This document shows positions 5,098-60,493 of a DNA stretch of 64,000 nucleotides, piece by piece. The translations under genes were made by a program, and so were the position numbers. The DNA is from Massalongia carnosa. Its lineage: Eukaryota. Positions within the stretch are counted from its first letter, which is position 1, and every line of letters starts with the position of its first letter. Under the pieces are notes generated by a model. The model did no database searches, was not told the origin of the DNA, and saw only the letters and a list, made by a program, of their open reading frames with translations. Where the stretch lies: the NCBI GenBank assembly GCA_965645245.1, contig OZ287068.1:434001-498000 (forward strand), given 5' to 3'.

Positions 5098-8000
5098 ATG
5101 TGGAAATGGCCAGCGGTCTTAGGTAGTGATTCACTTACGAGCATGAAGGGAAAATCCTTTAAACCTTGGTACCAGAAAGGTATTTCGCCTTCGTGCTTTG
5201 GGGTAACGCGTGAGCAACGCTTTCGTTATGATGACGCTGACTAACTGAGTTAGAACTGTTGATCGCCCCTTCGGCGATATTGACACCTCCATTCACCACC
5301 ACGCCTACCAGCGTACTCAAAGGCTCAGCTTCCAGCTATAAATTAGTTAAACCAACCAGATTACCTACATTGCCTGAACAACATCGCAGAGCACACCGGC
5401 ATCGTTCTTTCAGTTCTCCATCTATAGTAAGAATACCGGAAAAAGGCATCCTTAAATCTCCTGGCTTCGTAACCTCATCCAGTTTTAGTGCGTCTCCTTT
5501 GTCTGAAATAGGGACACACCAGAGGGTAAATGCTGATCTTTTCGACTCCGTAATTTCACCTGATTTCACACCTTCTCCTGCATTAACAACTTCTGCTTCC
5601 TCCAAAAGAAGAACAGAGCACAACCACAACGGTGATCCTTTAATAACCTCGCCTGGCATTACATCTTCTCTTGGATACGTTACCTGTTCCTCCAAGACAA
5701 GGCCACAGGATAAGGACGACGGTGATTCTTCTAGCTTTACTTCTCCATCTCACTTCACAACCTCCCCGGCAGCAATCATCTCATCTTCCATTAAAGCAAG
5801 GACTCAGGACAAGATCAACAACAGCCTCCTCCTAACCTCATCTGACCTTTTTGTCTCTTCTGAAGTCACACCTAGTAAACAGGGTAGATATCCTTCTAAC
5901 TTGATAACCTCGTCTAGCTTTACAACCCTTCCTTCTTCAAAACCAAAGGCACAGGATAAGGCTAGAATTGAGCAATCGGACTTCATCAATACTTTTGATT
6001 TTACTGGCTTTTCAGACTCCATAGTTTCTTCTTTAACCCAAGAAATAATCCAGGATACGGACAGCGTCGATTCTTCCGAGTTCGTCAGCTTCTACATAGC
6101 CAGATCAAAGGTGCAGATTGAAGATGACCTTGATGCTTCATTACAAACCGAAGGCGACGTTCAATCTTCTAGATTAAGATCTTTATCGAAACCAAGGAGG
6201 CAAGACAAAGGCGATTCTAATTCCTTGACTCATGGCAAAGTCATATCTCAATCCATACCAAGAGCACAGAACAAGGACGATGGTGGCTTTTGGATTCAAC
6301 CCAGACAGAAGGCTGATTCTTCAGATTTCATAAACTCCTACTCATCCAATCCAAAGACACCAACCAAAGGTGATCTTATTTCCTCGATACAAACTGAAGC
6401 CCAAATTCCCTCTTCAGAGTTCGGCTTGTCTTCATTCAAAGCAAGGACCCAAAATGCCAATGCTCTTGATAATTCTAAGTTCATAAACTCTCCATTATCC
6501 AAGCTAAGAACACAAAGCAAAGACTATCTTGGTCCTTCGAAACAGGCAAAGACACAAGATCATCCTTTTGGTATCGGTTCTTCTTCATCCAAAGCAAGGA
6601 CACAAACCATAAGCGACCCTGACTCTTCTAGCTTCATAGCCTCTTCATCCAAACTAAGGACCCAAACTAAAGGCAATCTTCATTCTTCTGATTTATCAAG
6701 CTCTTATTCAGCTCAAGCGGAGGTGTCGACTAAAAGCAACGTTGAAACTTTAAGCACCCTAACCTCCAGTTTCACCGACATAAAGCCGCAAATCAGAAGG
6801 GCCGTTGACGCTTCAGGCTTTACTAACACTTCTTCAATAACAGCAAGAACACATACCATAAAGGCTGATAACTTTGAATTCATAAACTCTTCATTTTCCA
6901 AGGTAGAAACACAGGTTGTAGGCGACTCCGATTCTTCCAAGAGCATAGGCTCTTCTTCATCTAAAACAATAACACAGGGAAAAGGCGTCATCCACCCACC
7001 TGGTTCCATCAGCTCACTTCCATCCCATAGTGAAGCTCTCTCATCTAATATCATAAGCTCCTCTACATCAAAATCAAAGGCATCAAAGAAGGAAAGATCC
7101 TATTCACCTGAACTTTTAAGCTCGTCCACATCCAAAATAAGAGCAGAGAATAAAATTCGAGCCCATCCGCCTGGCTCTCTGAAAGCATCTTTCTCCGAAC
7201 CAAACACACAGAACCAAGGCGACTCCGGTTCTCCTAGCTTCATAAACCCCTTGTCCTCCGCTTCAGAGACACATCCTGAAGTGAACCCACCTGATCCCGC
7301 AGGCACGTTTTCATCCAAAGCAAACTCCCAAGACGAAAGCCATATTCCTTATCCTGGTTTCATACGCCCGTCTTCGCCATCGGACAACGAGAATTACGGG
7401 GAACAAATCATCCTCCCTAGCCTTGATCCTTCCGCGCTCAGCCAACTGCCCCTCCGCCTACAGAGCTCTCTCCTAGCTATGCAACAAGAACGGGAGCAAA
7501 ATAGGGCTCCACTGGAGGGTAGCGAAACCCTCGAGGCAACTGGGCCACGTCTTGGCCCAGTTGGCTCGAGGGGGACCTTTGCGGACCGCCGCCGGGGGCG
7601 CGTCTTTGACGTCGCCCCAGACCTTGCGGCGATGAACGGTGTGACACAGTACACGCCGTTACACTCAAATCCGCCCAACGAGCGGGAAATCGCGTACGCG
7701 AGATGTAAGCATTTCCAGTGAGATAGTTTGAAAGACGACGCTGACTTGAACACCTTAGTCCTGGCGGCGCGGCGCCCGCTTCGCCCAACTCCTGAGGCCC
7801 CCCTTCCTGTTGTCCCCACGGTCGGAGCAGCCCAAGAACAGCCTTCGCCGCCAACAACTCAGCGCCGACCGGAGAATGCAATCAGGTCGGCGCTCCGGAA
7901 GAGCAAATCTTTGACGAGCCTTAGAGGCTCTAGCTCGAAGAGAGTTGTTGGGGCGAAGGCTGTGGAGGGGCTGAAGGCTGCGGGGGAGAAGATCATGGGG

Positions 8001-26141: not shown

Positions 26142-27947
26142 GATGATGTATTCATACTCCGATATGAAACCGGCCATAGGCCGGCCCATGCGGGCAAAGC
26201 TATCTAAGTTATGTTACATGGAAAACCTTTCACAGGTGTAAAAACCATATCCCTTGATACCCGTCCGATGTGACTACAGGTCGACGTCGGGCGGGAGACG
26301 CAGTGCAAAAGACGTGTGGGAACTGTAATGCCTTGTGAAAAGAGAAGAAAGAAAGAAAGGTTCAACTATTGTTGATTGTACAATAATGTTGATGCTAGTG
26401 AGAATTGATTCAATAAGCCTGTTTTCATTAGCTAAGCAGTTAGTATCTTCAGAGTTTTTGATGATTCGGTCAGCTGCTGATAATCGCTCGTGCCGGCGGC
26501 GCGAAACATCTGTTCTCTATTGTCAATAAGTCTGCAGAACATGATTATATGTTCTGGAGTTTGTCTGTGCCAGCCACATGAGCAGGCCGGTGAGGTGACG
26601 GTGGGCACCCGTCGCTTGTAGAGGAAGGCAGCTAACCCGATCTTGCCAGTGCGGATTTGTGTTGTTAGAGCGCTTTCTGCCTTTTTTAGCTGCGTGTGTA
26701 TTTTCAGCCGTTTTTTGCTCAGTGGGACTGATTGTGTTATGGAGGGTTCGATGACGCGATTTTGATATGCGCACCATGAGTCGTTCCAGCCCTTCATTTG
26801 TCGTGCTTTGATTATTTGCATCTGCTTGTGTCGGGCCGTTGCCGCAACGGTAGCTTCGCGGTGCCACGCCGGGTAGACTTCGAACCATCGTGGGTGTGCC
26901 TTTGGTGGTTGAACTATTTTTGAGTCGATCAGTAGGCTTTTGGCCCAGATGTGTTTCAGCTCTCCCGGGGTGGGCTTTTGAAGTCGTTTGCGACCTGCCT
27001 TGCCTCGAAGTTTGTCAGCTATTTTGTTGCATGCGGAGGAGATGATCTTCAATTGGCCTCCGGCTCGGAGCCGGTGCCTTGCCTGTGCTTGTAGCATGTC
27101 GAGATGCGTGTCTATGGGCGCTATGAATGTCTCTGCTTCTAGTGCTGAGATGGGAGTGGCTTTAAAGGCACCGGCTATGGTGCGAAGGCAATTGTTTTGC
27201 ATGACGGAGAGCTTGCTCGTTGACGTTTTTGACTTTTTGACTTCTTTGGGCATGTGCCATACGGTTGAACCATATGTCATGGCCGGACGCACCACGGCAC
27301 TGTAAACTTGCATTGCCTTGGCGAAGGTGGCACCCAAGGTTGATGTGGAATTTTTGTCAATGCCATGTATTGTTTGACCATTTTCTCTTGCGTTTTGCGA
27401 ACGTGCGGTCCCCATTTCAATTTGGTGTCGATTTGTAGGCCCAATACTCTGATGTCCGTTTTTGGTTAAATTTCGGTGCTAGCAATATTGATGGATGCAG
27501 TCATGTTGAATCTTTTAGGATTTCTGGACAAGTGTATGAGTTCGTACTTCGTCGGAGCGAATACGGACCCGTGCCGGGAAGCCCACGTCTCACATTGTCT
27601 GTGTATTGCCTCTAGAGTTTTGTAATTTTCCTCGGTGCTTTTTCCATATGCCAAAATGTTTGCGTCATCTACGAATCCTATGGCACTTGTGTTTTTGCCT
27701 GGTCGATCACATATTTCCAATAGATCTGCGTTGTAAAATAGGTAAAGAATGGATGACAGGGGAGAGCCCTGCGGGATACCCGTTCTTACCGCAAACCGCC
27801 CGGTGACTTTTCGATTTATTGCTAAAGTGGTGCTTCGATCGCTCAGAAGCTGTTTACCCAGTCGGTGATCCATTTTAAAAATTTTCTTTTCCGTAGGTTG
27901 TGCGTTACATAGTCGTTGATGTGATACCGTATCGAACGCGCCGGCGA
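26142..27947 (-). mobile_element. 5'-truncated non-LTR retrotransposon (Tad/LINE-like), frameshifted RT plus C-terminal zinc knuckle
   Basis: Starts at RT motif (D)VAGAFDTVSH; GIPQGSPLS, FVDD, VYSAVVRPAMTYGS, IAGAFKATP, CSCG...HIIMFC. Flanked by 13-bp direct repeat CGTATGCTATGAT (26129-26141; 27948-27960); short (ATC)n-type 3' tail. Confidence 0.92.
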
Positions 27948-29003
27948 CGTATGCTATGATAATGGACGTGAAAGAACTCTATCCTTCTCAGCAGGGCTTC
28001 TTGGCGTGATATGTCGAGTTTTCACCATCGCTTACGCAACGCCTCTCATCTAACGCCTCCTGCGTATCTATTAGCAGAATACAAAGTCGATCATTCATAG
28101 CCTTCACACGATCATTCATACCCTTCACATTTTAGCAACCCTACACAACTATATTCATCCTCCTCAAACCAGCTATACCTACTGAGGGTTTAGCCCTACT
28201 TGCCTTGCTTCTCTCAAGGATTATTTCCATGTATCCTTTTCTCAATCGTTTTGACATGCCGGCACCAGCTTTAACAAGATTAGCGATCACAAATTTTGGC
28301 CGAAGCTGTCCGAAGCTGATCAAGCTGCTAGAGTTAATCGAGAAGCGTATAAAAACCAAGTGTCTCAATCCTACCTAATAAGGAAGCTTCAAACACCAAG
28401 TCATCACATGAACTCAACGCTAAGTATATCATCCAGAAAGCTCAGCTTCAAGAAGCGCCTAGGGACTCAGACGCTATAGATGTTAAAAAGCAAGAAGCCT
28501 TTTTGACTCCGCCAAACGCTTGGCTAGCAAACTGCTTCACTAGTCCTCTGTTCGCCGGCACTTGTTTTTTTTTACTGAGCAGTTCTTCATCCACCGAACT
28601 ACATCATCCAAGTTTTAATAATGATACATGCTCTGAGATTTTTGACATCCGGGCAGCAGTAAGTTATAGAACTAATGGTCTGAACTTACTTACGCACTAA
28701 AGCAGCTTTTGTCATTTCCATTAATGGCAAGGAAGCGAGAAAGAGCACGTAAAGCACTATAAGATAAATTCAAAGAGAACTTCAAAGATAACTCTAAACA
28801 CCAAAAAGAAGATTAGATGTAGAATTACAAGAGTCGTTTTATTCAGCGAATTAGTGACAGCGACTCAAACGAAGATGCCTCGCTGTTGAGTATAGGAGAC
28901 TCATTATACTATATAAATACAAAAATACTCGACTCCACTATATATTTCCTCTGAATCTCTCGGAAGGAGTTTTAGGAATGAGGACGAAATGTCGACAGGC
29001 TAG

Positions 29004-29190: not shown

Positions 29191-30288
29191 TACCATGGCA
29201 CGAGGAGTCCTCTGCTTGCCCGTGTTGTCGCGCGCCCCTGGCTAGCATTCCCGCCAATGTCACAAAGGGCGATCCCTGCCTGAGGCCCTACTCGAGAGCT
29301 TCCGGGGTATAGTTTCACGACAGCAAGGAACTGGGCGCGGAAGTCGAGATGACTCGATACGTGCTATCTTATTTTAAAATTTCGATAATGAAGTAGCAAG
29401 TATTCTTCGGAAACCGCAAGATGATGAACGCTGTCAAAGCCTGGCTTGACCGGGTTCGAGAAGCGGCACATCGATGCTGAAACGAATCAGGTGCAGCCAT
29501 GGAGCAGGGAGTATCATTTACTGTTTCAACGCCATGTTTCTGGCCGAGCCCGGATTGGGGCTGGACGTCAGCGCTCGTTGGTCTAATGCTACTTCCTTCC
29601 TTCCTCTCTAGTATATCGGGGGCAATCATTCCGAAGCCTCCACCCTATATGATCCGGTTCGTTCTTGTTTTCTCGATCTTTGCCCGCCTGGCCTCCCTCC
29701 CCCCAATTCACCAATAGAAGCCACAGCTATATGTAGGTAGGTATTCAAGGAACAGGGATATATACTCTACATAAATCCGGAGATTTTCCCTTCCATTCGC
29801 TCAAGAAACGGCTGAGGCTGGTAACGGGTATCTTGTCACTCATCAAACAACCGAAAGAAATCTGGCCGTTGAGCCACCACCAGCACCACCAGCACCACCA
29901 GCACCACCAGCAGCAGAACCCTCAAGCAAATGAAATATTTTTCCACCTCCCCCCCCCCTTTGATGATCAAAACGCCGGGTTGGAGATGCCAGGAACATGA
30001 AATGGAATGAAATTTACCTACCTATTCTACTCTAATCCTCTCTACTGGAGGTTATTAAAAAAAAGGAATTTATGGACAAGAGTCGGCGGCCTTCAATCTA
30101 TACCTAGCTTCATATATATCTAGATCATAACAGCACGTTAACCCCCCCCCCTTTCCTCAAAAAAACAAAAAAAACTGCAGCGGCAGCAACAGCAACGACG
30201 TGAACACATCCCCGTTCCAATCCTTTCCGTAGAGGGGGGGGGGGGGGAAAGCGTGAAGACGAGAGAATTTTCTCCATAACCCTGTTCC

Positions 30289-33200
30289 CAGTGTTCGCAA
30301 TGGAGTGATTCTTAATGGATATCCACTCCATTTAATCCACTCCAATCCACTCCAAAGGTTTTTTTTTTAAATGGAGTCCATCCAATAAGGTTTTAGGCTT
30401 AATGGAGTCACTCCAATAAGGATTTATCTAATGGAGTGGACTCCATGGAGTCCAATGGATTAGGGCCTAAAAATAGGTGGTGTTTTAGGTATAGCTCCAG
30501 GGGCCTTAAAGCTATGGTAATTCCCACATTTTAAGTGATATTTCACTTGTTTTACTGCTTTTATTCGTGTCAACCTACAAATATCACTTGCTATGGACTG
30601 AATTTGCTTCTATTTAAACTAGAAACCACCAAAATCCGTCCCGAACCGTACTTGCAGTGATGTCTGATATTAGTGACGATACAACTACAACCCGCCCCGA
30701 CCCTGGCGAGACAGAGTCAGTATTTGAGCTTCCTGGAGCATGTGATATCGACGTTCCTGAACGTATTACGCGTGGCAGAAAGCGTACGGTTGGTTCAGCA
30801 GAGCTTGGGAATGAAGCTTCAAGAGTATTGATCCATATCCTTTATTTAATCAAGCTTATATATTAATATATGGCAGAGGTCTCCATCCCAGTCAGCCCTG
30901 AGCTTTTCTCGACGTTCCCCTGCACCCTCCACGACTTCCCAAGCTACGGAGCGTCCCCATATCATCCTGAGCGGCACTATATACTCTGAGAACGACAGGA
31001 ACGCTCCTGGTAACCATTCCAGCAGCCCTTCTAGGCCGTCACCTATAACCTCTATTGAAGGCAGGGTTATTGGTGGCCGGTTTTCGTCTCCTACAAGTGG
31101 AATAGCTTCAAAGAGAGCTAGAGCGAGCCGTAGTTGGATATGGGATTGGGGCACCAAGGCAGAGAGGGAGGGCAAGGCCTATTGGGTGTGTAACAAATGT
31201 AAAGTACCAGATTTATACTTATTTGCCATGTTTGCTATGAAAATTTGTATAGAACTCAGTGTAATTCCGCCCATTTTATATGTACCGAACCATCGAGTTG
31301 TCATTTGGACATGTACTATACATTTGTCCAATATCTATTTAATTTATATTAACGATTATTAAAGCTAATAAACTACAGGTGTTGCAGACGGTTCTAATAC
31401 TGAGTATATGATCACAAACGGCACTGCTTCATGTGGAGAGCACTTAAGAAAGGACCATAATCTTGTTCCACCTAAGGAAGCAGCTGCTAGGGCATCTATC
31501 TCTGTTGTTGAACATCTTCAACAAGGGGTAGTAGTTGCTCCTTTTAGTCCAGAAGTCTTTCGACAAAAGCTCTTACGATTTCTTTGTATTTGTCATATTC
31601 CTTTTGCCATTGTAGAGCAGCGTGCTTTTCGAGACCTGCTTTTATATTCAAGTCCGTATTTACGAGGCAATGATACACTCCCCAAGTCGGGCAATTCCAT
31701 TAAAGCTGCACTATTAGAGATATTTCTAGCTTGTCAACTTGTATTGATTCAGTTATTAGTGGAAAGCAACTGCCAAGTCCATATATCCTTTGACTTATGG
31801 TCGTCTCCTAATAATTTCTCTATGCTAGGTCTTTGCTGTCACTTTATTGATCGTTCCTGGCAAGCACGTACAGTGATTCTTGGCATGAAGCGTCTTATTG
31901 GACCCCATAGTGGAGAGAATATGTCAAAATTAATAGTCAAGGCCCTTGAAGTTTATAAACTAGGGGGTAGGCTCGGCTACTGTGTTTTGGATAATGCCGG
32001 TGATAATGACACTTGCTTGAGAGCAGTCGAGGAACATCTCCTTTTGCAGGGAGTTAGGTGGGACGCTGATACTCACCGACTACGTTGTTTCGGCCATATC
32101 GTTAATCTCGTGGCAACTGCATTCTTAGAGAACAAACCTACGAAGCAAGCGCGTCAACGACTCCCAGGGGAGTCCAAGGCAGTCTGGAAACGTCCAATAG
32201 ATGCTATTACGAAGCTTCATGTGATTATTGTCTTTATAATGGCCACCGCTCAAAGGATCAAGCAGTTTGAAGGGATTAATAAGACGATTCAAGACCCTCT
32301 CTTGCATCCAATTAAAGAGCAAATCACTAGATGGTTTTCAACTCTTAATATGCTTCGACGGGCCATTCAAATCAAAGACTCTCTTGATCTATTCGTCCAT
32401 CGTAACTCTGAGCAATCATTTACTGAGAAGACTCTTTTTGATTCGCAAATGACGGTTGACGATTGGAACTACGCCAAGGAAGTGATTGCTTTTATGGAAC
32501 CACTCGAAGAGCTTATGATGAGTTTACAAGGAAGAGAGATGTCTGGTATATTATATAAGCTTTAAATAACTCGATAATCACTAAGCTTTTAATAGGAAAT
32601 AATGGTTACGCTCACCAAGTGCTCCCTTCATATGATTTAATAAAAAAGGGGATGGAAGAGCAGCTATTTGGCTTTGAGCTTGATGAAGTCGATCAGTCAA
32701 ACCCACAGGAACTAGCTAGTAAACGACTGGAACTGAACATTATTAACGCCATGCAAAAGCTAGAGAAATACCGTCAACTACTCACTTCCCCTATTTATTT
32801 AGTGGCCGTCGTCCTGATGCCCTGGTATAAGTGGACTTATTTTGAGGATAGTATGAGTGCTAGTGACCTTGCTCAAGCTCGTACGAAGGTCCAAAAACTT
32901 TGGCAAGACTTATATGCAAATATAGAGGTTGCTGAAGATGATACACCGTCACCTGGAAGTCAAAATAATAAGGTATATTAACACTTATTAATATAAAAAC
33001 ACGGCTAACTATATTTGTAGCACGCTAAGCCCTCCCTTTTGAAGGAACACCTTAAAAGGAGTACAAACAAAGCTAAATCCACTGTCAGAGATGAATATAG
33101 ACGGTACTGTAATACAGAACCAGTTGATGAAGATGGTTGCGGGTTCTCTGGCCACTTAGAATGGTGGAAAGCTCACGAGCCTCACTATCCTAGACTAGCT

Positions 33201-34095
33201 CAAATGGCCAGGGATATATTCTCTGTGCCTGGCATGAGTGCAGAGGTCGAACGCTTGTTCTCTTCGTCCAAATTGATGATTCCAGATCATAGGAATCGTC
33301 TAAAACCCGACTTTATTGAGGCAGGAGAGTGTATTAGAAGCTGGGCCATGGGTGGGCTAGTTCTAGGAGACTATTTCGAGTACTTACCAGCGTACCAGAA
33401 GGCAGGAGAGAAGTTCGGGGATCAAGGGAACCCATAGGAGGTGGGATGAGTGCATGGTTGCCAAGGGGACTAGAAGTTGATATTTGCTATGTTTGATGGC
33501 AAATTTGGCATTGCTAGAAAGGTTCTTTTAGGTATCTTTTGAATTTTTCCTAGTTAATTTTAGTTGAAAGGTTCAAAAACTACTTTGAGTTCGTGGAGAA
33601 CAAATGCAAAAACACTCCTTCCTCATCACTTCAACATCGCAACCTCAATCTACCACCTATATTTCAGACTCTACCCCCTAGCCGAGGTTTACCGGGCCAT
33701 GGAAGGTGCGAAAATCCAGCCAAAATCATCAAAACACAAAGGTCGTCGTCCTCGCTTAGCTGGGTCGTCGTCTCGATTAGGCAATTTATATCTACTACAA
33801 AGTGGTTTTACGCTCGAGGGAGGTTCCGGAAAGGTTTGTACGCACTGCACTTCAGTGGAGTCCATGGAGTCCATGGATTAAATGGATTAAATGGATTTAA
33901 TCCAGTGGAGTCCACTGGATTTACTCCACTGGAGATCCATGGACTCCGATCCACTCCATCCATTAAATATTCCTTAATGGAGTCCAATCCATTAAGGTTT
34001 AATCTTAATGGACTCCAATCCATATAGGTCTAGACTTAATGGATTGGATTGGAGCGCCACTCCAATCCAATCCAGTCACTCCATTGCGAACACTG
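30289..34095 (+). mobile_element. Full-length hAT DNA transposon (3807 bp)
   Basis: Perfect 20-bp TIR CAGTGTTCGCAATGGAGTGA; 8-bp TSD CCTGTTCC (30281-30288; 34096-34103); dense subterminal ATGGAG/CTCCAT/AATGGA repeats at both ends. Confidence 0.97.
30660..33437 (+). CDS. hAT transposase with BED zinc finger, 5 exons, apparently intact
   Basis: Predicted introns 30825-30876, 31199-31378, 32546-32595 and 32973-33020 give one continuous frame: WVCNKC...HLRKDH (BED), SFDLWS, VLDNA, RLRCFGH, TRWFS, WWK...YPRLAQMARD, SAEVERLFS. Confidence 0.9.
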
Positions 34096-34433
34096 CCTGT
34101 TCCGATATGCTCTGAGCCTGCCTGGCTGGATACAGATTTTGATTTTTGGGGGGGGAGGGTTGCTGTTCTCCGCTAGGTAGTAGTTATGTATATGTCCAAC
34201 CTCCAGCTCAACTCCTCGTCCTATATAGGTATTTGTACTCCTACCCCTATCCCTTCCCTAACCTCTAATATCCCAGCACCAGCACCATCCCCAGCCCTCG
34301 CTCCCGCCCCAGAAAAACAAAACTATCACCCCACCGTTTGATCAGCGCTAACGGGAATCGAACCTGTTTATGATTAATCACAAATGAATTTGGCTCATTG
34401 CTAGGACAATACTCTTGTTCTAGCACCGTCTCC

Positions 34434-34435
<2 letters not shown>

Positions 34436-34467
<32 letters not shown>

Positions 34468-34556
34468 CTATCACCATCACCATCATCATCACTATCACCA
34501 TCATCATCATCATCACTATCACCATCATCATCATCATCATCACTATCACCATCACC
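34436..34556. repeat. Compound (CAT)n / CATCACTATCAC microsatellite
   Basis: Direct reading; it produces the spurious Met/Val-rich ORF 34265-34555. Confidence 0.9.
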
Positions 34557-34575
34557 TAAGATAATGATACATAAT

Positions 34576-35890
34576 CACGCCCCTGAAAAAAAAACTGGTA
34601 ACGTGTAAGCGAGCTTACCCCATCAAATTTTACCCCTTTTTATCAACATTTCACCTTTACATTGCGATAACTAGTCAATTGAAAGCTATTTACATCAAAT
34701 TAATGACCAGTCATGGCCCCCTCAGCTGAGATGACGTCCTTTAGCCGTTGAGGCATTGATCGTACTCTCTCATTAATAAACTCCTGACTGACTGTCGCCC
34801 AGCCCTCACAAATCAATGCTTTTAAGCTCGCTTCGTCCCAATGAGGATACTTTTTAATATGCTGCTTTGTGGGCTGCCAGCTGTTTTCAATAGGAGCCAA
34901 ATCAGGTGAAGAAGAGCAGTTGAAATAATGCTCTAAACGATGATCCTCCTTCCATTTCTTGACTGCGTTTCTCGTCCTGCCTGTGCCATGCCCGGAATCA
35001 CCATCTTCTTCGAGCACAAAATCATCCCCTCGCTCTAGCCACGGCTTGAAAACGGGCTCAAGTATTGAGTTAATGTATACTTGATGCGTCATCTTGCCAT
35101 TGCTGTTGCCCGGCACTTCGTAGAATATAATATCCGACTTGAAGTTGTAGCCTACAGCCGCCCAACAATGCAGTCTCTTTTGATCATTCTCCGCTGGCGC
35201 ATCACGATGTTGTATACAATTCCATCTATAGCGTGTGCCTGGCTGACGTATGATGCGTAATTTGCCCTCGAGCCCGTAGGAGAAATGAACTTCGTCACTA
35301 AATCGTACTCGATACCAATCTTCTGGTTTAGGATATTTGGCCAGCATTATATGAGCGTATTCCACCCGTTTTTGCATAGGAGGGTCGGCCAGCCATCCTT
35401 TGACGCAGGCTAGACATTTCTCGTAATTCAATGCAGCACGTAGCACGTTATGCATTGTACGACCCACAATATCTGCTCCAACTTCCATCGCAACTTGTTC
35501 CCATGTCAAGCGTTTTCCTTCGAGTTGTAGCTCATCTTCCTGAAGCAGCCGATCAGCCTCTCGTACTTACTCGCCTGAGATTTTTGATCGTCTTCCTCGC
35601 GTTTCTATAAGCTCTGTATGATGACGAGTACGTGTCGAAGGTCCTTTGCGAATAATTCTGTAGCCAGCTCGTTCCGAAACGCCATACTTCTTGAAAAGAT
35701 TTCGTGGATCATGTACGATGCCTTCATCAAGAAGATATTCATGAATTCCTTGAAGTTTAGCTCGAATGGGAGTATCGTAGTGAGTTGCACGTTGCTTACG
35801 AGGCATGTTGGTGTGGATGGTTGATGAAAAAGGGGGGATTTTAATGGGTAAGGTCGCCTACACCTTGCCAGTTTTTTTTTCAGGGGCGTG
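34576..35890 (-). mobile_element. Tc1/mariner-superfamily DNA transposon (about 1.3 kb)
   Basis: 45-bp TIRs with 4 mismatches (34576-34620 / 35846-35890, CACGCCCCTGAAAAAAAAACTGG...) enclosing a DDE transposase; no TA TSD. Confidence 0.9.
34700..35806 (-). pseudogene. Tc1-like DDE transposase with one in-frame stop
   Basis: ORFs 35567-35806 and 34700-35509 share a frame, interrupted only by TAA at 35567-35569 (GE*VREAD). Motifs RFSDE, EEDGDSGHG and SPDLAPIEN, with 38 residues between the second D and the E. Confidence 0.88.
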
Positions 35891-38226
35891 CCCTCTCGGC
35901 TGGTGAATTGGCACCCCCCTCCCGCACTAGCTGTTAGTCGCATAGTGTTAGTAAGCAAGAACATCAAAATTTGTTTACTTTCTACCTCAAAACAATCACC
36001 ATTATTATCATTAGAAAAATAAATCTCCTTACCATCAATTGCTTCAAACATCATATTATATTTTATTCAGCGTCATGGGACTAAATGAAGAAGAAATTCC
36101 GAGTGTTTCAGACAAATCCCCAGTTTCAGCAAAGCAACATAGGATAAATAGCAAACGCACTGTTAGAAGCATCTTGGCTGACATTCCTCCTCTTTCGAGT
36201 TACAAACCCATTTCAATTGATGATAGACCTCCAAGATCGCTGGTGAATGGTCTTGTTGATACTCCTCTTGGATTTTTTCAGCTCTTTATTACGACTCAGC
36301 CCTGTCGGACCATCGCATATCACACGAACATCAAGGCTCACGATCATACAGAGAAAGAAAAGGAGAATAATCATCGCCCATAGTATGACACCATTAGACC
36401 AGAAATTGAGGTTTTTTTGGGCATTCTTTTGTTTATGGGCATGGATCATGCGCCTGCCACGGAAGATTACTGGAATCAATGCCCCGACAAGCCCAATTTC
36501 CTATCTATTTCACAAGCCATGTCCCTCGTACGATTTCAACAAATCAAAGTGATTCTTAAAGCTTAATAATGGACGTACAGAACCTCCGCGCATGGGCAAA
36601 GGAGTCGATTGGTGGAAGAAGTTGGAACCTCTTGCTACTGATTTTCGTCAGGCCTCGTTGAAGTACTATCAACCAGGAAGCATCATATCAATTGATGAGC
36701 AGCTTATTAAATTCGAAGGTCGATCACGTCATACTCTACAAATAACCTCAAAGCAGGCTGGAAAGGGGTTTAAAATATATAGTCTTTGTCAGAATAACTA
36801 CTTGATATCTTTTTTGTTTGCCTCCAAAGTTAGTATCTTTCTAAAAAATTAAATCTCATTTTCCCTTTTTGATCTTTGAATCGTGATCTCTTTCGGACAA
36901 AATTCCATGAAACCTTGTGTTTTTGCTGTAAAAACCCTCTGTTTTCTGTCGCTTTTCCCAACATAAACTGCAATGATTAACACGTATCAGGTCACAAAAA
37001 TCAGTCAGTTAAAAACCACTAGAGAAATGGGCTTTTTAGCAAAGGATGGCCTTTCGGATAGTGCTTTGCTGGTAATTCAGCTTTGTAAAACACTTCCTGA
37101 ACCACTGAATTACACTCTTTTCTGCGACAACTTCATTACCAGCACAAAGCTATTCAAAGCTCTTCGATCACTAGGAATTGCTGCATGTGGAACAGCTAAA
37201 AAAGGCTCTGGATTTCCCGCGAAGTTGTTGGCTCTGCGGGATATGGCCATTAAATCCAAACATTGGGGACTTCGGGCCAGTACGACTGTGGATGAGGTGC
37301 TCTGTTTGGGATGGGTGGACAATAACACCGTTCAGTTGATGACTACTCGTCATCATCCTCGGGAGCTTGATGACTCGTACTATTTACATCCGCTTAAAAG
37401 GCATGGAATTCCAGAAGACTCCGTTCAGCCAATCATACCCATACCATACTATCCCTCAATGTACGCTCACATCATTTTGCTGCCTGATCAAACACCTTCA
37501 TGGCCTTTAGGCCTACCGATTCCCGCACCAGTCAGAGAATATAATCTTCACATGGGTGGGTCAGATGGAAATGCTCAGCAGGGAGCGGTTTATTCTTATC
37601 AACGCCGAAGCGATCGATATTGGTGGCCACTGTTTATTTTTTTGTTAGATGCTGCTGCGCTCAATGCATACAAGCTTTATCTAATTGATGACTTCAGAAC
37701 AGAAGGAAAAAAAATCACTCGTACGGATTTTGCTCATCATCTTGCCCTCAGTCTGATGAAGAATCCCGCTGGACAAACCCGACGACATGAGTCAAAGATA
37801 AGGATTCAGACCAACTCTGAGCCTTTAGTTTCTACCCCCGAGCACCATTATATTCATCTAGAGAAGAAGCGGAAATGCGAGCCCTGCAATGTCAATAAAA
37901 CAAGGCCCTCCAAAAGAAAAGGGGAGCCTTTGGCTGAAAGAGACGCTAATGGCAGGAAAAGAAAGCAGTGAGGTTCTCAAACAAGATGGGCGTGTGGAGG
38001 ATGTCATCCAATCAGACCTTGTTGTAAAAATCAGGCCTGCTGGGCGGCAATACATTTGAACTGAAAGAAGAAGATGGAGTTGAGGTAGATAGTAATTGAT
38101 TGGGCAATTCTTAAAAAGGGGTAGCAAGCCGCTTATTTGATTGGTAGATATTTAAGGTTTCGGGAGCTCTAAACCATCTAACTATAGCTAGTGCGGGAGG
38201 GGGGTGCCAATTCACCAGCGAGAGGG
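35891..38226 (+). mobile_element. piggyBac-like DNA transposon (2336 bp)
   Basis: 41-42-bp TIRs CCCTCTC(G)GCTGGTGAATTGGCACCCCCCTCCCGCACTAGCT (35891-35932 / 38186-38226) with CCC...GGG termini; no TTAA TSD. Confidence 0.9.
36075..38064 (+). pseudogene. piggyBac transposase pseudogene
   Basis: Motifs PLGFFQLF, ISIDEQLIKFEGRS, GFKIYSLC, FCDNFITS, CGTA, WVDNN, YNLHMGGSD, WWPLFIFLLD and a C-terminal Cys-rich domain (CEPC...CGGC...CC...CW..IH). Disabled by TAG at 36381-36383, a frameshift near 36548 and TGA at 37969-37971; probable intron about 36828-36990. Confidence 0.88.
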
Positions 38227-39521
38227 ATACCTACCACATGATATGTTGGTTGGTCGTGCCTATCGGTCACTCGGAGCCGAGGGGCGAAGTGCTATGTACT
38301 GGTAAGTACTCCGTAAATCCAGTGTACAGAAGGCCTTAGTGCTGCGTATTGTGTACTATTTACAGTGTACTCGTACTGGTACTGTACAGAGTAACAACTG
38401 CGTATAGTAAGTAGGCAACTCGCTTCGATTACTACTTTCTTGACACGATTACGGAGTATGGAGTAACTGTGCAACTACCGCGTACAGAGTACCAAGAATG
38501 GAAATGGCCACCTACGTTTGACTAGTTCGTTATAGAGTACGTGCTCGCCGTCCTCGTCGCTCGGGATTGTTAGACGTGCCGAAGAGCCTTACTGGCACTA
38601 CCCACACAGTACTTAAATTCCATCCACGGCCCCAATATCGGTTGACGAATCACGATGAACCAATCGGTATCCCACTCCTCGTCGGGCCACGCAAATGATG
38701 GGATGGGGCTGAAAGGGTTGATCGGCATCCTCGAAACGCAGATCATTCATCACCTGAAGATTATGCCATGAAACCCTCCATAACATACCGATGCGGCATG
38801 CAGGAGAATTCTTAACTATGTATCTAGAATCCATTCGGAGAGTGTGCAGTTCTACGTAACTCTGCCCGCCAGCCTTCAACTCCTTGACACGGCAATCAAC
38901 CGGTCATCCATTCTCTGACACCGGGACACCCATTTGCTTCCTCTTCCTCCCCCCCTTCCACCACCACCTTACACATCCCTTGTTTCTCCAAAACCCCCGT
39001 CTTTGGTGTGCATGTGGGCGTATTCCTCGTCAGCGTCGTTCCACCAATCTATCCTCAACGGACTCTTATGGCCCCCTTCATATTCGACGCGCGTCCAGCC
39101 GGACTGAACACGAAGAGTCCTCGTTTCATGTGGGCCAGATTTATTCCCACCCTATCTCTTTCTGTAGCAACGGTGAACGAGGATGATGCTACCATCCTTG
39201 ATGCAAAGGCTTGATCCTTAGGCCTTCTGCAGGAATTTCTCGGCTTCGATTCGACGCCTTTCGGCAAGCCGATCTCATTCAAACAATGCATGGGAGTCAG
39301 CTCATAAAACAATGCGTTATGGTCTGATACAATGACGTGCACACTCACCATACGTTATAGGATTTGCACCGAGGTTTCTAAGTGTATAAAGCTTTACCGA
39401 ATTCCCTTCACATATCATTCTGACCTTAACTGAGCAGTTCTTGACCCATACCACCCTTCCTTTAAAGAAAGCCTTTCCAAGTCACCCTTTCTCTCACTCA
39501 ACCCACACAATCGTTGACAGG

Positions 39522-42980: not shown

Positions 42981-44314
42981 ATGCACGACCCCTTCCCCCT
43001 CCGCCCGCCCGCCTTCCTAACTGCCCTCACCACCCCTATCGCCGAGTCTCTCTCCCTGCATACCCTCCCGCTCCATATCCACGAAATCCTCCTCGCGACC
43101 CTCACCTACCACCTTATATGCACCGTCATTGCGCCTTTTCTCAGCGCCCGCCTCTTCCCTACCATCTACCCACAGCTCCCGCGGCGCACGCGGCTGAACT
43201 GGGACGTGCATGTGGTCTCCATGGTGCAGAGCGTGGTGGTGAACGCACTGGCGCTGTGGGTCATGTGGGTGGATAAGGAGCGAGCGCGCATGGGGTGGGA
43301 GGCGCGAGTGTGGGGGTACGACGGGGCGGGGGGGATGATCCAGGGCTTTGCGGCGGGATATTTTCTGTGGGATTTGCTGGTTTGTGTGAGGTGGGTGGGG
43401 GTGTTTGGGTGGGGGATGCTGGCGCATGCGGTAGCGGCGTTGGTGGTGTTTTCGTTGGGTTTTGTGAGTTTCTTTTATACTTCACGAACGAATCCATCTT
43501 ACATCGCTCGTCTCCTCTCTATCCCATCAAACTTCCCGCCCCCTACTAACCTATCTTGTCTGTCATAAAGCGGCCCTTTGTCAACTTTTACGGGCCAACC
43601 TTCATCCTCTATGAGCTCTCCTCTCCCTTCCTGAACCTTCACTGGTTCTTCGACAAGCTACGTATGACCGGCTCCCGCGCGCAATGGTACAACGGTATTC
43701 TCCTCCTTTCTTCCTTCTTCGCTTGCCGCCTCCTTTGGGGCACCTACCAGTCCGTGCGCGTCTACCAGGATGTGTGGGCAGCGCTGCACCACAACGGCGG
43801 CCTTGCCTCCCTGTACTCTTCATCTTCTGCAGCTGCATGGGGGGCGGATAAGGTTGGGGATAGAATCGCTCTTTCGTCAACAGGCGTGATGCGTTTCGCT
43901 ACGGACCCCCACGTGCCCGTCTGGCTTGCGTGCACGTACCTGGGCAGCAACGTGGTGCTGAACACCCTCAACTTCTACTGGTTTGGCAAGATGATCGAGA
44001 CGGTGCAGAAGCGATTTCGCAGCCCACCGAATAAGGGCGTGGGGGCCTCCTCCACGCAGCATCACCACCATCTTAGCGGTTGGGGGAGCGGGGTGGTGGT
44101 GGTGGAGGGCACGGAGGTTGATGGGGGGGAGGAGGAGGAGGAGGAGGAGGAGGAGGAGGAGGAGGAGGAAGAGGATGAGGAAGCAGAGAAGATGGAGGGA
44201 GAGAGCGATGAAGAGGAGGAGACGGAGGAGGAGGAGAGAGGCGCAGTAAGGGTCCTGGAAAAGGGCGTGGAGATCGAGGTCCAGAAAACCGAGATCCGGC
44301 GACGCAAAGTCTGA
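42981..44314 (+). CDS. TLC-domain (TRAM/LAG1/CLN8) membrane protein, TMEM56/Tda4-like, with acidic tail
   Basis: WDVHVVSMVQS, GYFLWDL, HAVAAL; intron about 43464-43570; FILYELSSPFLNLHWF, FFACRL, LNTLNFYWFGKMI; poly-Glu tail. Confidence 0.9.
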
Positions 44315-45348
44315 TTTGTTGGTTTCCCTACCCCTCTCTCCGTTGATTGAAGAATCCGTCTGTCCGTTCGCCCGTTCGCCCGTTCGTACAACTAATCGAC
44401 TAAGCTAGGTTAAGAAGCGGGCAGTCAGGCAGTCAGGCAGTCAGACAGTCATTATTCACTATACAAACTCGGTCGGTTGGTTGTTTCTTTTGGTTGTTGG
44501 GGGTGAAAAGGGGGGGGGGTTTATTTTGGTTCATCCATCCATCCACCATACATAGGTATTTTTCCCTCTGTTTCTCTTTCTGTCTATCTAGCGGGTTCTG
44601 TTTGGGGGGAGGGTTGGTGATATAGGGAGCCGAGAGAGATAACGGGGAGCGATGATGGGGGAAGAGATAAGCAAGAGGAGGAGGGGGTTAAGAGGGTGGT
44701 GGATATAAACATATAACATATATATATACATATGCGTGTAATAACTAATAATTTCTTTTTTTTCCCCTGGCGCTTTCCCTTTCCCTTGCCCGTGTTACGT
44801 TACGTACGTTATTATATACGTACTAAGGGGGGGGCTAGGTTTAGTTGCGAGTGAGTGAATAGGTGAGTGTTATTTTTTGCTGGTTTTCTTGCTTGGAAAA
44901 AGGGGGGAAGTTGGTATTTAGAGAGTATCTAACCTATATCACCTACCTAGTGATTGTAGCTAATCAAAACCTGGATGAATGGGGTTTGGTCCCCGTTACG
45001 GGAGGGTCCGGGTCTGGAGGGGGGAAAGGGGGTTGTTCTTTTGCAGGATCATCGTCATGATATGTATGTATGATTATTTTCCTAACTTGTCTACTACATA
45101 TCTCTACTAGGTAAATCTATCGACATTCGCTTTCCCTTCCCCACTACCGGCGCTCAAGAACCGTGCCTCGAGAATCGAACGAAGAACGAAGGAGGTAAGG
45201 AAGTGCCCACTCGGATAATGGCTGAAGGCTGGGGGGCCAGGGTAAAGCCTGAGGTGTTTGTTTTATCTTGGAGGGGTTGTGGTGTGGGTGGGTGGGTAGG
45301 GGTAGTAGTAGTAGAACTAAGTGGTAGTGGTAGTGGTAGTGGTAGTGT

Positions 45349-45737
<389 letters not shown>

Positions 45738-46039
45738 AGAGAGAGAGAGAGAGAGATGGCTGGGGGTTGGCGGTTTCGGCGGAGGCGAGTTTAGGGGGAA
45801 AGGGAGGAATGAGCGGTCTCTGTTTGGCGATGGATTAGTGGGATACTCGCCGCCTTAGAAGGGGAGGGAGGGGTCTTACGGCGGATGAGGAGGAAATGGT
45901 CTTATACAGGGGTTGGAAATGGGGTGGCGGAGCGAGTAGAGGTTTGGAGCGGGATGCATCACAACTGCGGTTGTACAATATCTCCACCCGCTAGATTTTG
46001 AATCCTCGAACAACGGTTCTCCTCGTTTTAGCAACAGCC

Positions 46040-59889: not shown

Positions 59890-60137
59890 GTTAACGTTTG
59901 GAGTTTCCTTGAAAAGTGTAGGCACAGAGAAGAGAATGGAACAGGAACAAGAAGTTTATGCGTCGAGACCGACGCATCAACATGGGTGTTTGAACTGGGC
60001 TAAACCCATTCTGGACTAGCGATCTTGACCTGTCGAAGAAGGGAAAGCGCCCCGTAGTTGATTACCCTGTCACGTACCTGTATGGGTGTTTCGGCACTCA
60101 GTCCGCAGGACACAGATGCAGGGTACAAATGAGTACA

Positions 60138-60240
60138 TACAGAGTACAGTGTACAGGGAACAATGTACAGAGTACAGTGTACAGGGAACAATGTACAGAG
60201 TACAGTGTACAGGGAACAGTGTACAGAGTACAGTGTACAG
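60138..60240. repeat. 28-bp tandem repeat, about 3.7 copies (TACAGAGTACAGTGTACAGGGAACAATG)
   Basis: Units at 60138, 60166, 60194 and a partial unit at 60222, in the divergent intergenic region. Confidence 0.9.
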
Positions 60241-60493
60241 TGTGCAAGTATTGAGTACCTTCTTTACAGGGAAATGCCGCATAAGAATCCGGTAATCCGG
60301 GGCTAAATTAGTGCGGATAGGTATCCGTCTTCGTAATTTATCCCCAGAGATATCTTACTATGCCGACCGCGTCAACGAGAGAACAAATCGTCCTTTCTAC
60401 TTTGTGCATGGACATTTACTTCCTAAACCTTTGCTTTCCATTACTACGTGGCCGTTAGTCTTGGCCTTATTCAGAGAAGCATCATACCACAGC

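Follow-up and report, generated by a model that had tools for sequence, protein, structure and literature searches.

Two DNA transposons of different superfamilies, one Tc1-like and one piggyBac-like, lie end to end in a 64,000-nt stretch of Massalongia carnosa DNA (contig OZ287068.1, positions 434,001 to 498,000; the whole of this stretch is referred to as the window). No base separates them, and neither is flanked by the target duplication of its superfamily, TA in Tc1/mariner and TTAA in piggyBac. How did two unrelated elements come to abut in this way, and why are the duplications missing? A preliminary description of the locus had given the coordinates of the pair, the zero spacer, the divergent transposases and the absence of TA and TTAA, and all of these proved correct to the base. 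The reading that we favour, with a probability of about 0.4, is that two independent elements were brought together by a single aberrant joining, without duplication, at a terminus that a transposase had cut, and that the missing TTAA is a trait of the piggyBac-like family. Anatomy, termini and flanks were read directly from the DNA, unlike the way in which the elements were joined and the order in which they arrived, which we infer from them. The features of the pair and its borders are the following.

34560..34575: left outer flank, ...GATAATGATACATAAT, ending in AT (...GATACATAAT); its nearest TA stands at 34572-34573, with ATAC at 34567-34570
34576..35890, minus strand: Tc1-like DNA transposon, 1,315 bp, termini 5'-CACGCCCCTG...CAGGGGCGTG-3', both intact
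34576..34628: left arm of the Tc1-like inverted repeat (3' end relative to the transposase)
34700..35806, minus strand: Tc1-like transposase gene; residues 1-368 of the related protein P0051 fall on 35806-34703 (tblastn)
35838..35890: right arm of the Tc1-like inverted repeat (5' end relative to the transposase), its last base being the junction
35890..35891: zero-spacer junction, head-to-head, the transposase 5' ends facing each other
35891..38226, plus strand: piggyBac-like DNA transposon, 2,336 bp, termini CCCTCTCG...CGAGAGGG
35891..35932: left arm (42 nt) of the piggyBac-like inverted repeat, one G longer than the right arm and than the copy represented by protein P0172
36075..38064, plus strand: piggyBac-like transposase pseudogene, ATG at 36075, natural stop at 38062-38064
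38186..38226: right arm (41 nt) of the piggyBac-like inverted repeat
38227..38235: right outer flank, ATACCTACC, beginning with AT and not with TTAA

At the junction, G 35890 (the last base of ...CAGGGGCGTG) is followed directly by C 35891 (the first base of CCCTCTC...). [quoted passage not shown] All four termini are intact, and in the arm alignments the similarity ends precisely at the junction bases. Two independently defined termini that abut exactly, with the similarity stopping there, are not what would be expected by chance; the observation is real and goes beyond chance. In addition, the completeness of all four termini and the end of similarity at the junction point to precise ends of the transposase type rather than to random breakage. 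Neither end of the Tc1-like element adjoins a TA, its left neighbour being AT and its right neighbour CC, the start of the piggyBac-like element, and neither end of the piggyBac-like element adjoins a TTAA.

Two other arrangements were considered and rejected. Insertion of the piggyBac-like element inside the Tc1-like repeat, or a Tc1-like repeat that extends further outward, does not agree with the right flank, which does not continue the Tc1-like arm. Paths made up of canonical steps only (the Tc1-like element entering the TA of a flanking TTAA, or the piggyBac-like element entering a TTAA that overlaps a TA) predict TA or TAA at the junction, where none is present.

Target duplications come only from staggered strand transfer by a transposase. 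Four intact termini without any duplication thus indicate that transposases made precise cuts at these ends, which were then joined in a non-canonical way. We propose that the Tc1-like and the piggyBac-like element would be independent cut-and-paste transposons and not parts of a composite, and that a single non-canonical joining event, leaving no target duplication, would explain both the zero spacer and the missing TA. Either one element would have inserted in an aberrant manner right at the other's terminus, or termini cut by a transposase would have been ligated by host end-joining. The preliminary description had offered three origins for the pair, namely a composite unit, the targeting of one element's terminus by the other and an adjacent deletion. 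[quoted passage not shown] Since canonical enzymes seldom miss, it is improbable that two of them missed independently at adjoining sites, and a common cause is likelier. The aberrant Sleeping Beauty integrations resemble the present junction in that a Tc1-family element is joined to non-TA DNA, sometimes without duplication. However, as described in the excerpts of the same two papers, they are rare experimental events (~1.4%) with targets that resemble the Sleeping Beauty end, whereas the Tc1-like element here adjoins the end of an element from an unrelated superfamily. Spy elements, which are related to PIF/Harbinger, are likewise described as cut-and-paste elements without target duplication (PMC4122938, in excerpt); they belong to another superfamily.

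Could the unusual borders reflect unusual elements? The Tc1-like element has inverted repeats bounding a single transposase gene, as in Tc1/mariner. Its arms of 53 nt are 87% complementary, with the outermost 23 nt identical, and a gapped alignment extends them to ~84 nt. The gene is interrupted by a lone in-frame TAA at 35567-35569 (X at residue 97 of the read-through, corresponding to Q80 of P0051) and ends at its natural stop, 34700-34702. P0051 is an intact relative of 368 aa with 96% protein identity, belonging to a cluster of 18 members. A 288-aa ORF (open reading frame) piece of the window gene matches the Pfam domain DDE_3 (PF13358, E 8.1e-09). Relatives of the transposase amounted to 374 matches, hundreds of them in ascomycetes, and the closest named ones, at 43-49% identity, are from Dothideomycetes, Leotiomycetes, Colletotrichum and Orbilia. 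When P0051 was aligned with the catalytic domain of Sleeping Beauty SB100X (5cr4), the second catalytic D and the E were matched, the first D falling outside the displayed alignment. The element shares with Tc1/mariner (Sleeping Beauty and fungal Tc1-like elements) the DDE_3 domain, 5'-CA...TG-3' termini, long imperfect repeats and a length of ~1.3 kb; it differs in that this copy is without TA at either end and in a spacing between second D and E that is four residues longer than in Sleeping Beauty. With the spacing of Sleeping Beauty, which we take to be DD34E, the Tc1-like transposase would be of the DD38E type.

The piggyBac-like element carries the CCC...GGG terminal repeats expected of its superfamily. 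The arms share a perfect core of 34 nt (35899-35932 and 38186-38219), outside which lie CCCTCTCG at 35891-35898 and GAGAGGG at 38220-38226; a conserved first cytosine is described for piggyBac-like termini (PMC5381638, in excerpt). Its transposase gene is damaged by a TAG (36381-36383), a +1 frameshift (36549-36552) and a TGA (37969-37971), and at the position of this TGA the relative P0003, with 97% protein identity, has an R. A stretch of 162 nt (GTTAGT...CAG, 36829-36990) also breaks the reading frame. The relatives P0013 and P0046 are contiguous across both this stretch and the frameshift; the stretch, which resembles a spliceosomal intron, could be an intron gained in the lineage or a small insertion. 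The Pfam domain DDE_Tnp_1_7 (PF13843) was found above the cut-off in three of the four ORF pieces (E 8.8e-11, 3e-08 and 3.4e-17), and the family profile matches the structures of piggyBat (9c0f, E 3.3e-19) and of Trichoplusia ni piggyBac (6x67, E 8.9e-17). The second D (in DNF), the third D (in YN..MGGSD) and the Cys-rich C-terminal tail align to 9c0f, and both D residues also to 6x67. The 36553-36849 piece carries the first catalytic D in its SIDEQ motif, which falls within the Pfam match but outside the printed alignment. Domain, motifs, Cys-rich domain and CCC/GGG ends are thus those of the T. ni and piggyBat elements. The superfamily is known in Pezizomycotina-type fungi (PMC5751038; PMC8773270), and the nearest anatomical match to the 42-bp repeat is a fungal piggyBac-like element of Paracoccidioides brasiliensis with a terminal repeat of 50 bp (PMC5381638, in excerpt). 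On the basis of protein and termini, both elements would be classed as ordinary new members of Tc1/mariner and piggyBac, and their 96-97% protein identity to relatives suggests that both are young and recently inactivated.

Other copies of the piggyBac-like family could be reached through an ORF that spans the junction.

35608..36054, minus strand: antisense ORF of 149 aa (P0171), running from the piggyBac-like 5' region through the left arm and across the junction into the Tc1-like element; used as a probe

This ORF is probably not a gene. It was compared by a word-indexed search with 5.8 billion clustered proteins and by an exhaustive search with 1.84 billion representatives, both made up of predicted proteins only. 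The word-indexed search returned three proteins among seven candidates, namely the window's own, P0172 and P0173, the latter two encoded on contigs of 1.86 and 2.43 Mb. These two match the piggyBac-like part only, with 3 and 2 residue differences, respectively, over the internal ~50 residues (~95% identity). Their similarity ends exactly where the terminal repeat ends, and the left neighbour is unrelated, with Tc1-like sequence in 0 of the 2. Read outward, the flank of P0172 is A-(T/C)-A-A-(T/C)-T-G-G, as deduced from the codons of D-N-W, where a TTAA would give V-(K/N). The flank of P0173 is A-A-(A/G)-G-T, from the codons of K-V-E, where a TTAA would give L. P0173 is in another frame (a 1-nt difference in the run of G), and at the place of its terminal GGG there is an E codon (GAA or GAG), i.e. 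this GGG is altered. Hence none of the three free ends of the family (P0172, P0173 and the right end in the window, ATAC) has a TTAA, and all three begin with A; with the left end in the window, where ...GCGTG is the end of the Tc1-like element, the count is 0 of 4. The family here differs from the piggyBac superfamily in this respect, lacking TTAA at either window end and at both other left ends.

The search of the representatives yielded only the ORF itself, a 43-aa fragment that ends before the repeat (P0174) and an unrelated repetitive protein (P0175). A second copy of the junction ORF was present in neither the 5.8 billion clustered nor the 1.84 billion representative proteins. Within the 64-kb window, no other copies were found among 7 direct families and 10 inverted pairs of repeats, and in tblastn each of 12 relatives matched this locus only. 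Bacterial and archaeal contigs scanned with 23 nt of each terminal repeat contained neither (0 and 0 matches), as expected of a collection without eukaryotes. For both P0003 and P0051, the 97% and 96% relatives, the longest contig on record has 2,020,593 nt, and the same pair may adjoin elsewhere. The preliminary description had named, as the result that would speak against an unusual origin, a unique junction combined with ordinary TA/TTAA flanks in other copies. The first part was borne out, the junction having been found nowhere else in these searches; the second was not, an ordinary TTAA being present in 0 of the 2 other piggyBac-like copies.

Repeats are the commonest place of assembly errors, and both families are multi-copy, the clusters of Tc1-like relatives having 18 to 43 members. 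An assembly artefact that joined two repeats would therefore be a trivial source of the junction. However, the window's own protein is on a 3.6-Mb contig, which suggests a long-read, chromosome-scale assembly, and the two ends have no k-mer in common through which they could have been mis-joined. A mis-join at 35890 would also leave unexplained that the outer flanks are non-canonical too. We consider an artefact very improbable.

Judging from the flanks of the other copies, the missing TTAA is probably a trait of the family, or of the way in which its copies become fixed, rather than local damage. In a survey of 157 piggyBac-like elements, flanks other than TTAA (TTTT, ATAG, TTAT, ATAT or ATAA) were reported for five single-copy elements and ascribed to mutation (PMC5381638, in excerpt). 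The largest piggyBac mining study, according to the part of it available (PMC13461360), kept only elements with a TTAA-type motif, a filter by which families without TTAA would be missed. The literature searched described no fungal piggyBac-like family without TTAA, and no end-to-end junction of a Tc1-like with a piggyBac-like element. In the T. ni transpososome the TTAA is read in single-stranded form, with a base-specific contact by N440 and a pocket of Y439, V414 and L416; excision by this enzyme does not need TTAA flanks, and integration is almost always at TTAA (PMC7351741, in excerpt). It is conceivable, although we hold it to be doubtful, that a young, low-copy piggyBac-like family of ascomycetes integrates at non-TTAA sites despite having contacts of the Y439/N440 type, perhaps without a fixed duplication and perhaps with a preference for DNA ends such as cut transposon termini.

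Several points weigh against a single aberrant joining combined with a family trait. We know of no mechanism that steers either superfamily to the terminus of another element, and end-joining would have to be exceptionally clean to leave each of the four termini whole to the last base. For the Tc1-like family, the flanks that enter the argument are those of this one copy. That the junction ORF is absent elsewhere is weak evidence, as this antisense ORF goes uncalled wherever the Tc1-like transposase gene is intact. In the alignment of 13 sequences of the piggyBac-like family, a Y and an N are nearly invariant seven residues before the catalytic D, and the family profile aligns these Y, N and D to Y439, N440 and D447 of 6x67 (V414, L416 and the omega loop lie outside the alignment). 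With Y439 and N440 conserved, at least part of the apparatus that reads TTAA has been kept, which argues for ordinary TTAA targeting. Finally, the claim at the level of the family stands on two flanks seen through proteins, both of left ends, and the end in P0173 may be damaged.

Could the duplications have been present once and been lost? The window is an ascomycete-like chromosome segment with housekeeping genes (TCP-1 chaperonin, seryl-tRNA synthetase, Dor1/COG8-like and UBE2O-like, by Pfam). In a transposon pocket at ~26-38 kb, an RVT_1 fragment, a hAT element and the Tc1-like and piggyBac-like elements all lie within 12 kb. The other two members of the pocket are the following.

27469-27978 (within 26435-27978), minus strand: RVT_1 fragment, E 5.7e-12, left over from a retroelement and bordering the pocket on its left
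30289-34095, plus strand: hAT element with Dimer_Tnp_hAT (the C-terminal hAT dimerisation domain), E 5e-21

The hAT element lies 480 bp to the left of the Tc1-like element. It has perfect inverted repeats of 20 nt, beginning with CAGTGTTCGC, and a perfect 8-bp target duplication, CCTGTTCC, with copies at 30281-30288 and 34096-34103. Duplications do survive in this neighbourhood, as the intact one of the hAT element shows. We rejected repeat-induced point mutation (RIP) as the agent that erased the duplications: neither TA nor TTAA has a C or G that a C-to-T mutation could strike, and the RIP indices of the two elements (TpA/ApT 0.71 and 0.66; (CpA+TpG)/(ApC+GpT) 1.37 and 1.53) are in the unmutated range, the same as those of the housekeeping genes. 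Because the hAT duplication is perfect, a RIP signature is absent and both elements are so close to their relatives, decay of the flanks by point mutation is unlikely.

Some further features of the pocket were recorded. The hAT element has short subterminal repeats (GGAGTCCA and AATGGA motifs), and its transposase is split across the ORF pieces 31372-32565, 32559-32981 and 33021-33437 by introns or frameshifts. The 348-aa ORF that adjoins the RVT_1 fragment had no Pfam match. An imperfect CAT/CAC microsatellite of ~120 bp (34437-34556), the frames of which read poly-His/Ser/Ile, stops 20 bp short of the Tc1-like element.

Loss by deletion is a different matter. Both families could be canonical in their targeting, the two elements having inserted separately and near to each other, after which deletions starting from element ends, i.e. 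abortive one-ended cuts healed by end-joining, removed the intervening DNA together with the duplications. This would agree with the conservation, in the piggyBac-like family, of the TTAA-contacting Y439/N440 and of the catalytic D, and within a 12-kb cluster of transposons the two elements could well have been close neighbours. Incomplete target signatures are also reported from Paracoccidioides, where only 61.6% of the insertions of Trem, which is of the Tc1/mariner type, had a TA and no target could be defined for one family with 42-bp repeats (PMC2836289, in excerpt). However, such a history needs at least three events, each starting from an exact terminus with zero terminal bases lost, and is unparsimonious. 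It leaves both of the other piggyBac-like left ends without TTAA unexplained, and the duplication of the neighbouring hAT element was left untouched. We regard it as unlikely, and the earlier remark that a deletion alone does not account for the two outer ends was upheld.

The outer flanks themselves offer little. In the 4 kb of local flanking sequence TA makes up 6.3% of the dinucleotides, AT 7.9%, and TTAA 0.55% of the 4-mers; the sole match between the two outer flanks is the dinucleotide AT, which at this frequency is weak evidence. On account of this AT, the preliminary description had suggested that the 3.65-kb pair may move as one composite unit, which would have duplicated AT on insertion. 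However, the outer termini come from different superfamilies, and no inverted repeat between 34576-34628 and 38186-38226 was among the 9 pairs found. Moreover, 2 of the 2 other piggyBac-like left ends have no Tc1-like partner, and neither a second junction ORF in the protein collections searched nor a second copy in the window was detected. The composite is therefore disfavoured, and we hold it to be extremely improbable. Teratorn, a piggyBac-like element that is physically combined with a second mobile element, is similar in outline, but there the partner lies inside the piggyBac ends and moves with them as one unit (PMC10175614, in excerpt), whereas here the partner is outside the ends.

The same AT can be read as a duplication made by the Tc1-like element. 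This element would have arrived first, at a non-canonical AT, and the piggyBac-like element would then have integrated, without duplication, between the Tc1-like terminus and its AT. With the piggyBac-like element removed, the Tc1-like element does have AT on both sides, and the length fits what Tc1/mariner elements duplicate; for Sleeping Beauty, 894 of 2,018,489 insertions are at AT (PMC5801840, in excerpt). Against this stand the ~7% probability that the flanking dinucleotides match by chance, the place of AT among the rarest Sleeping Beauty targets (same excerpt) and the 4-bp stagger of the known piggyBac enzyme, by which a duplication-free integration is barred (PMC7351741, in excerpt). 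This order of events is in our view quite unlikely.

A reversed order fares about equally poorly. Here the piggyBac-like element would have come first and produced a 4-bp duplication of ATAC, and its left end, cut later, would have captured an excised Tc1-like copy by end-joining with a 5-nt filler, ATAAT. ATAC is indeed found at 38227-38230 and at 34567-34570, the latter 5 nt to the left of the Tc1-like end, and the filler repeats a motif 10 nt upstream (34561-34565). The other copies of the family also have A-rich flanks other than TTAA, and the T. ni enzyme cuts ends whatever their flank (PMC7351741, in excerpt). However, from the composition we estimate that an ATAC within ~9 offsets of such an AT-rich flank has a chance of ~5-10%. 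The offset was not predicted beforehand, and the capture of a Tc1-like copy with both termini intact is an assumption.

Outside the pair, some repeats of the window may be mentioned. A GTACAG/GTACTG-rich sequence at 38290-38500, immediately to the right of the piggyBac-like element, resembles a 14-nt periodic GTACAG-rich repeat with 6 copies at 60119-60244, and these sequences may be a dispersed family of short repeats. A tandem array at 45215-45900, with a period of 9/12 nt, at least 43 overlapping register copies and 97% identity, lies within the ORF 45086-45838 and is probably a low-complexity coding repeat; a GAG/GGA-rich repeat (44091-44250) is found just upstream of it. Finally, Pfam gave no match for an 826-aa ORF at 5241-7721, the internal repeats of which (14 copies, 60-77% identity) have a period of ~48-63 nt.

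What distinguishes piggyBac, and has made it a tool of genome engineering, is that it targets TTAA and excises seamlessly. If the joining of the Tc1-like and the piggyBac-like element was a one-off rearrangement, the junction is a curiosity of annotation only. If, on the other hand, the family does lack TTAA by nature, a natural non-TTAA family with the core and the termini of piggyBac would be a ready system for studying target choice, and surveys filtered on TTAA would under-count the piggyBac superfamily. The end-to-end junction of two unrelated elements would be a rare natural record of the fate of transposase-cut ends.

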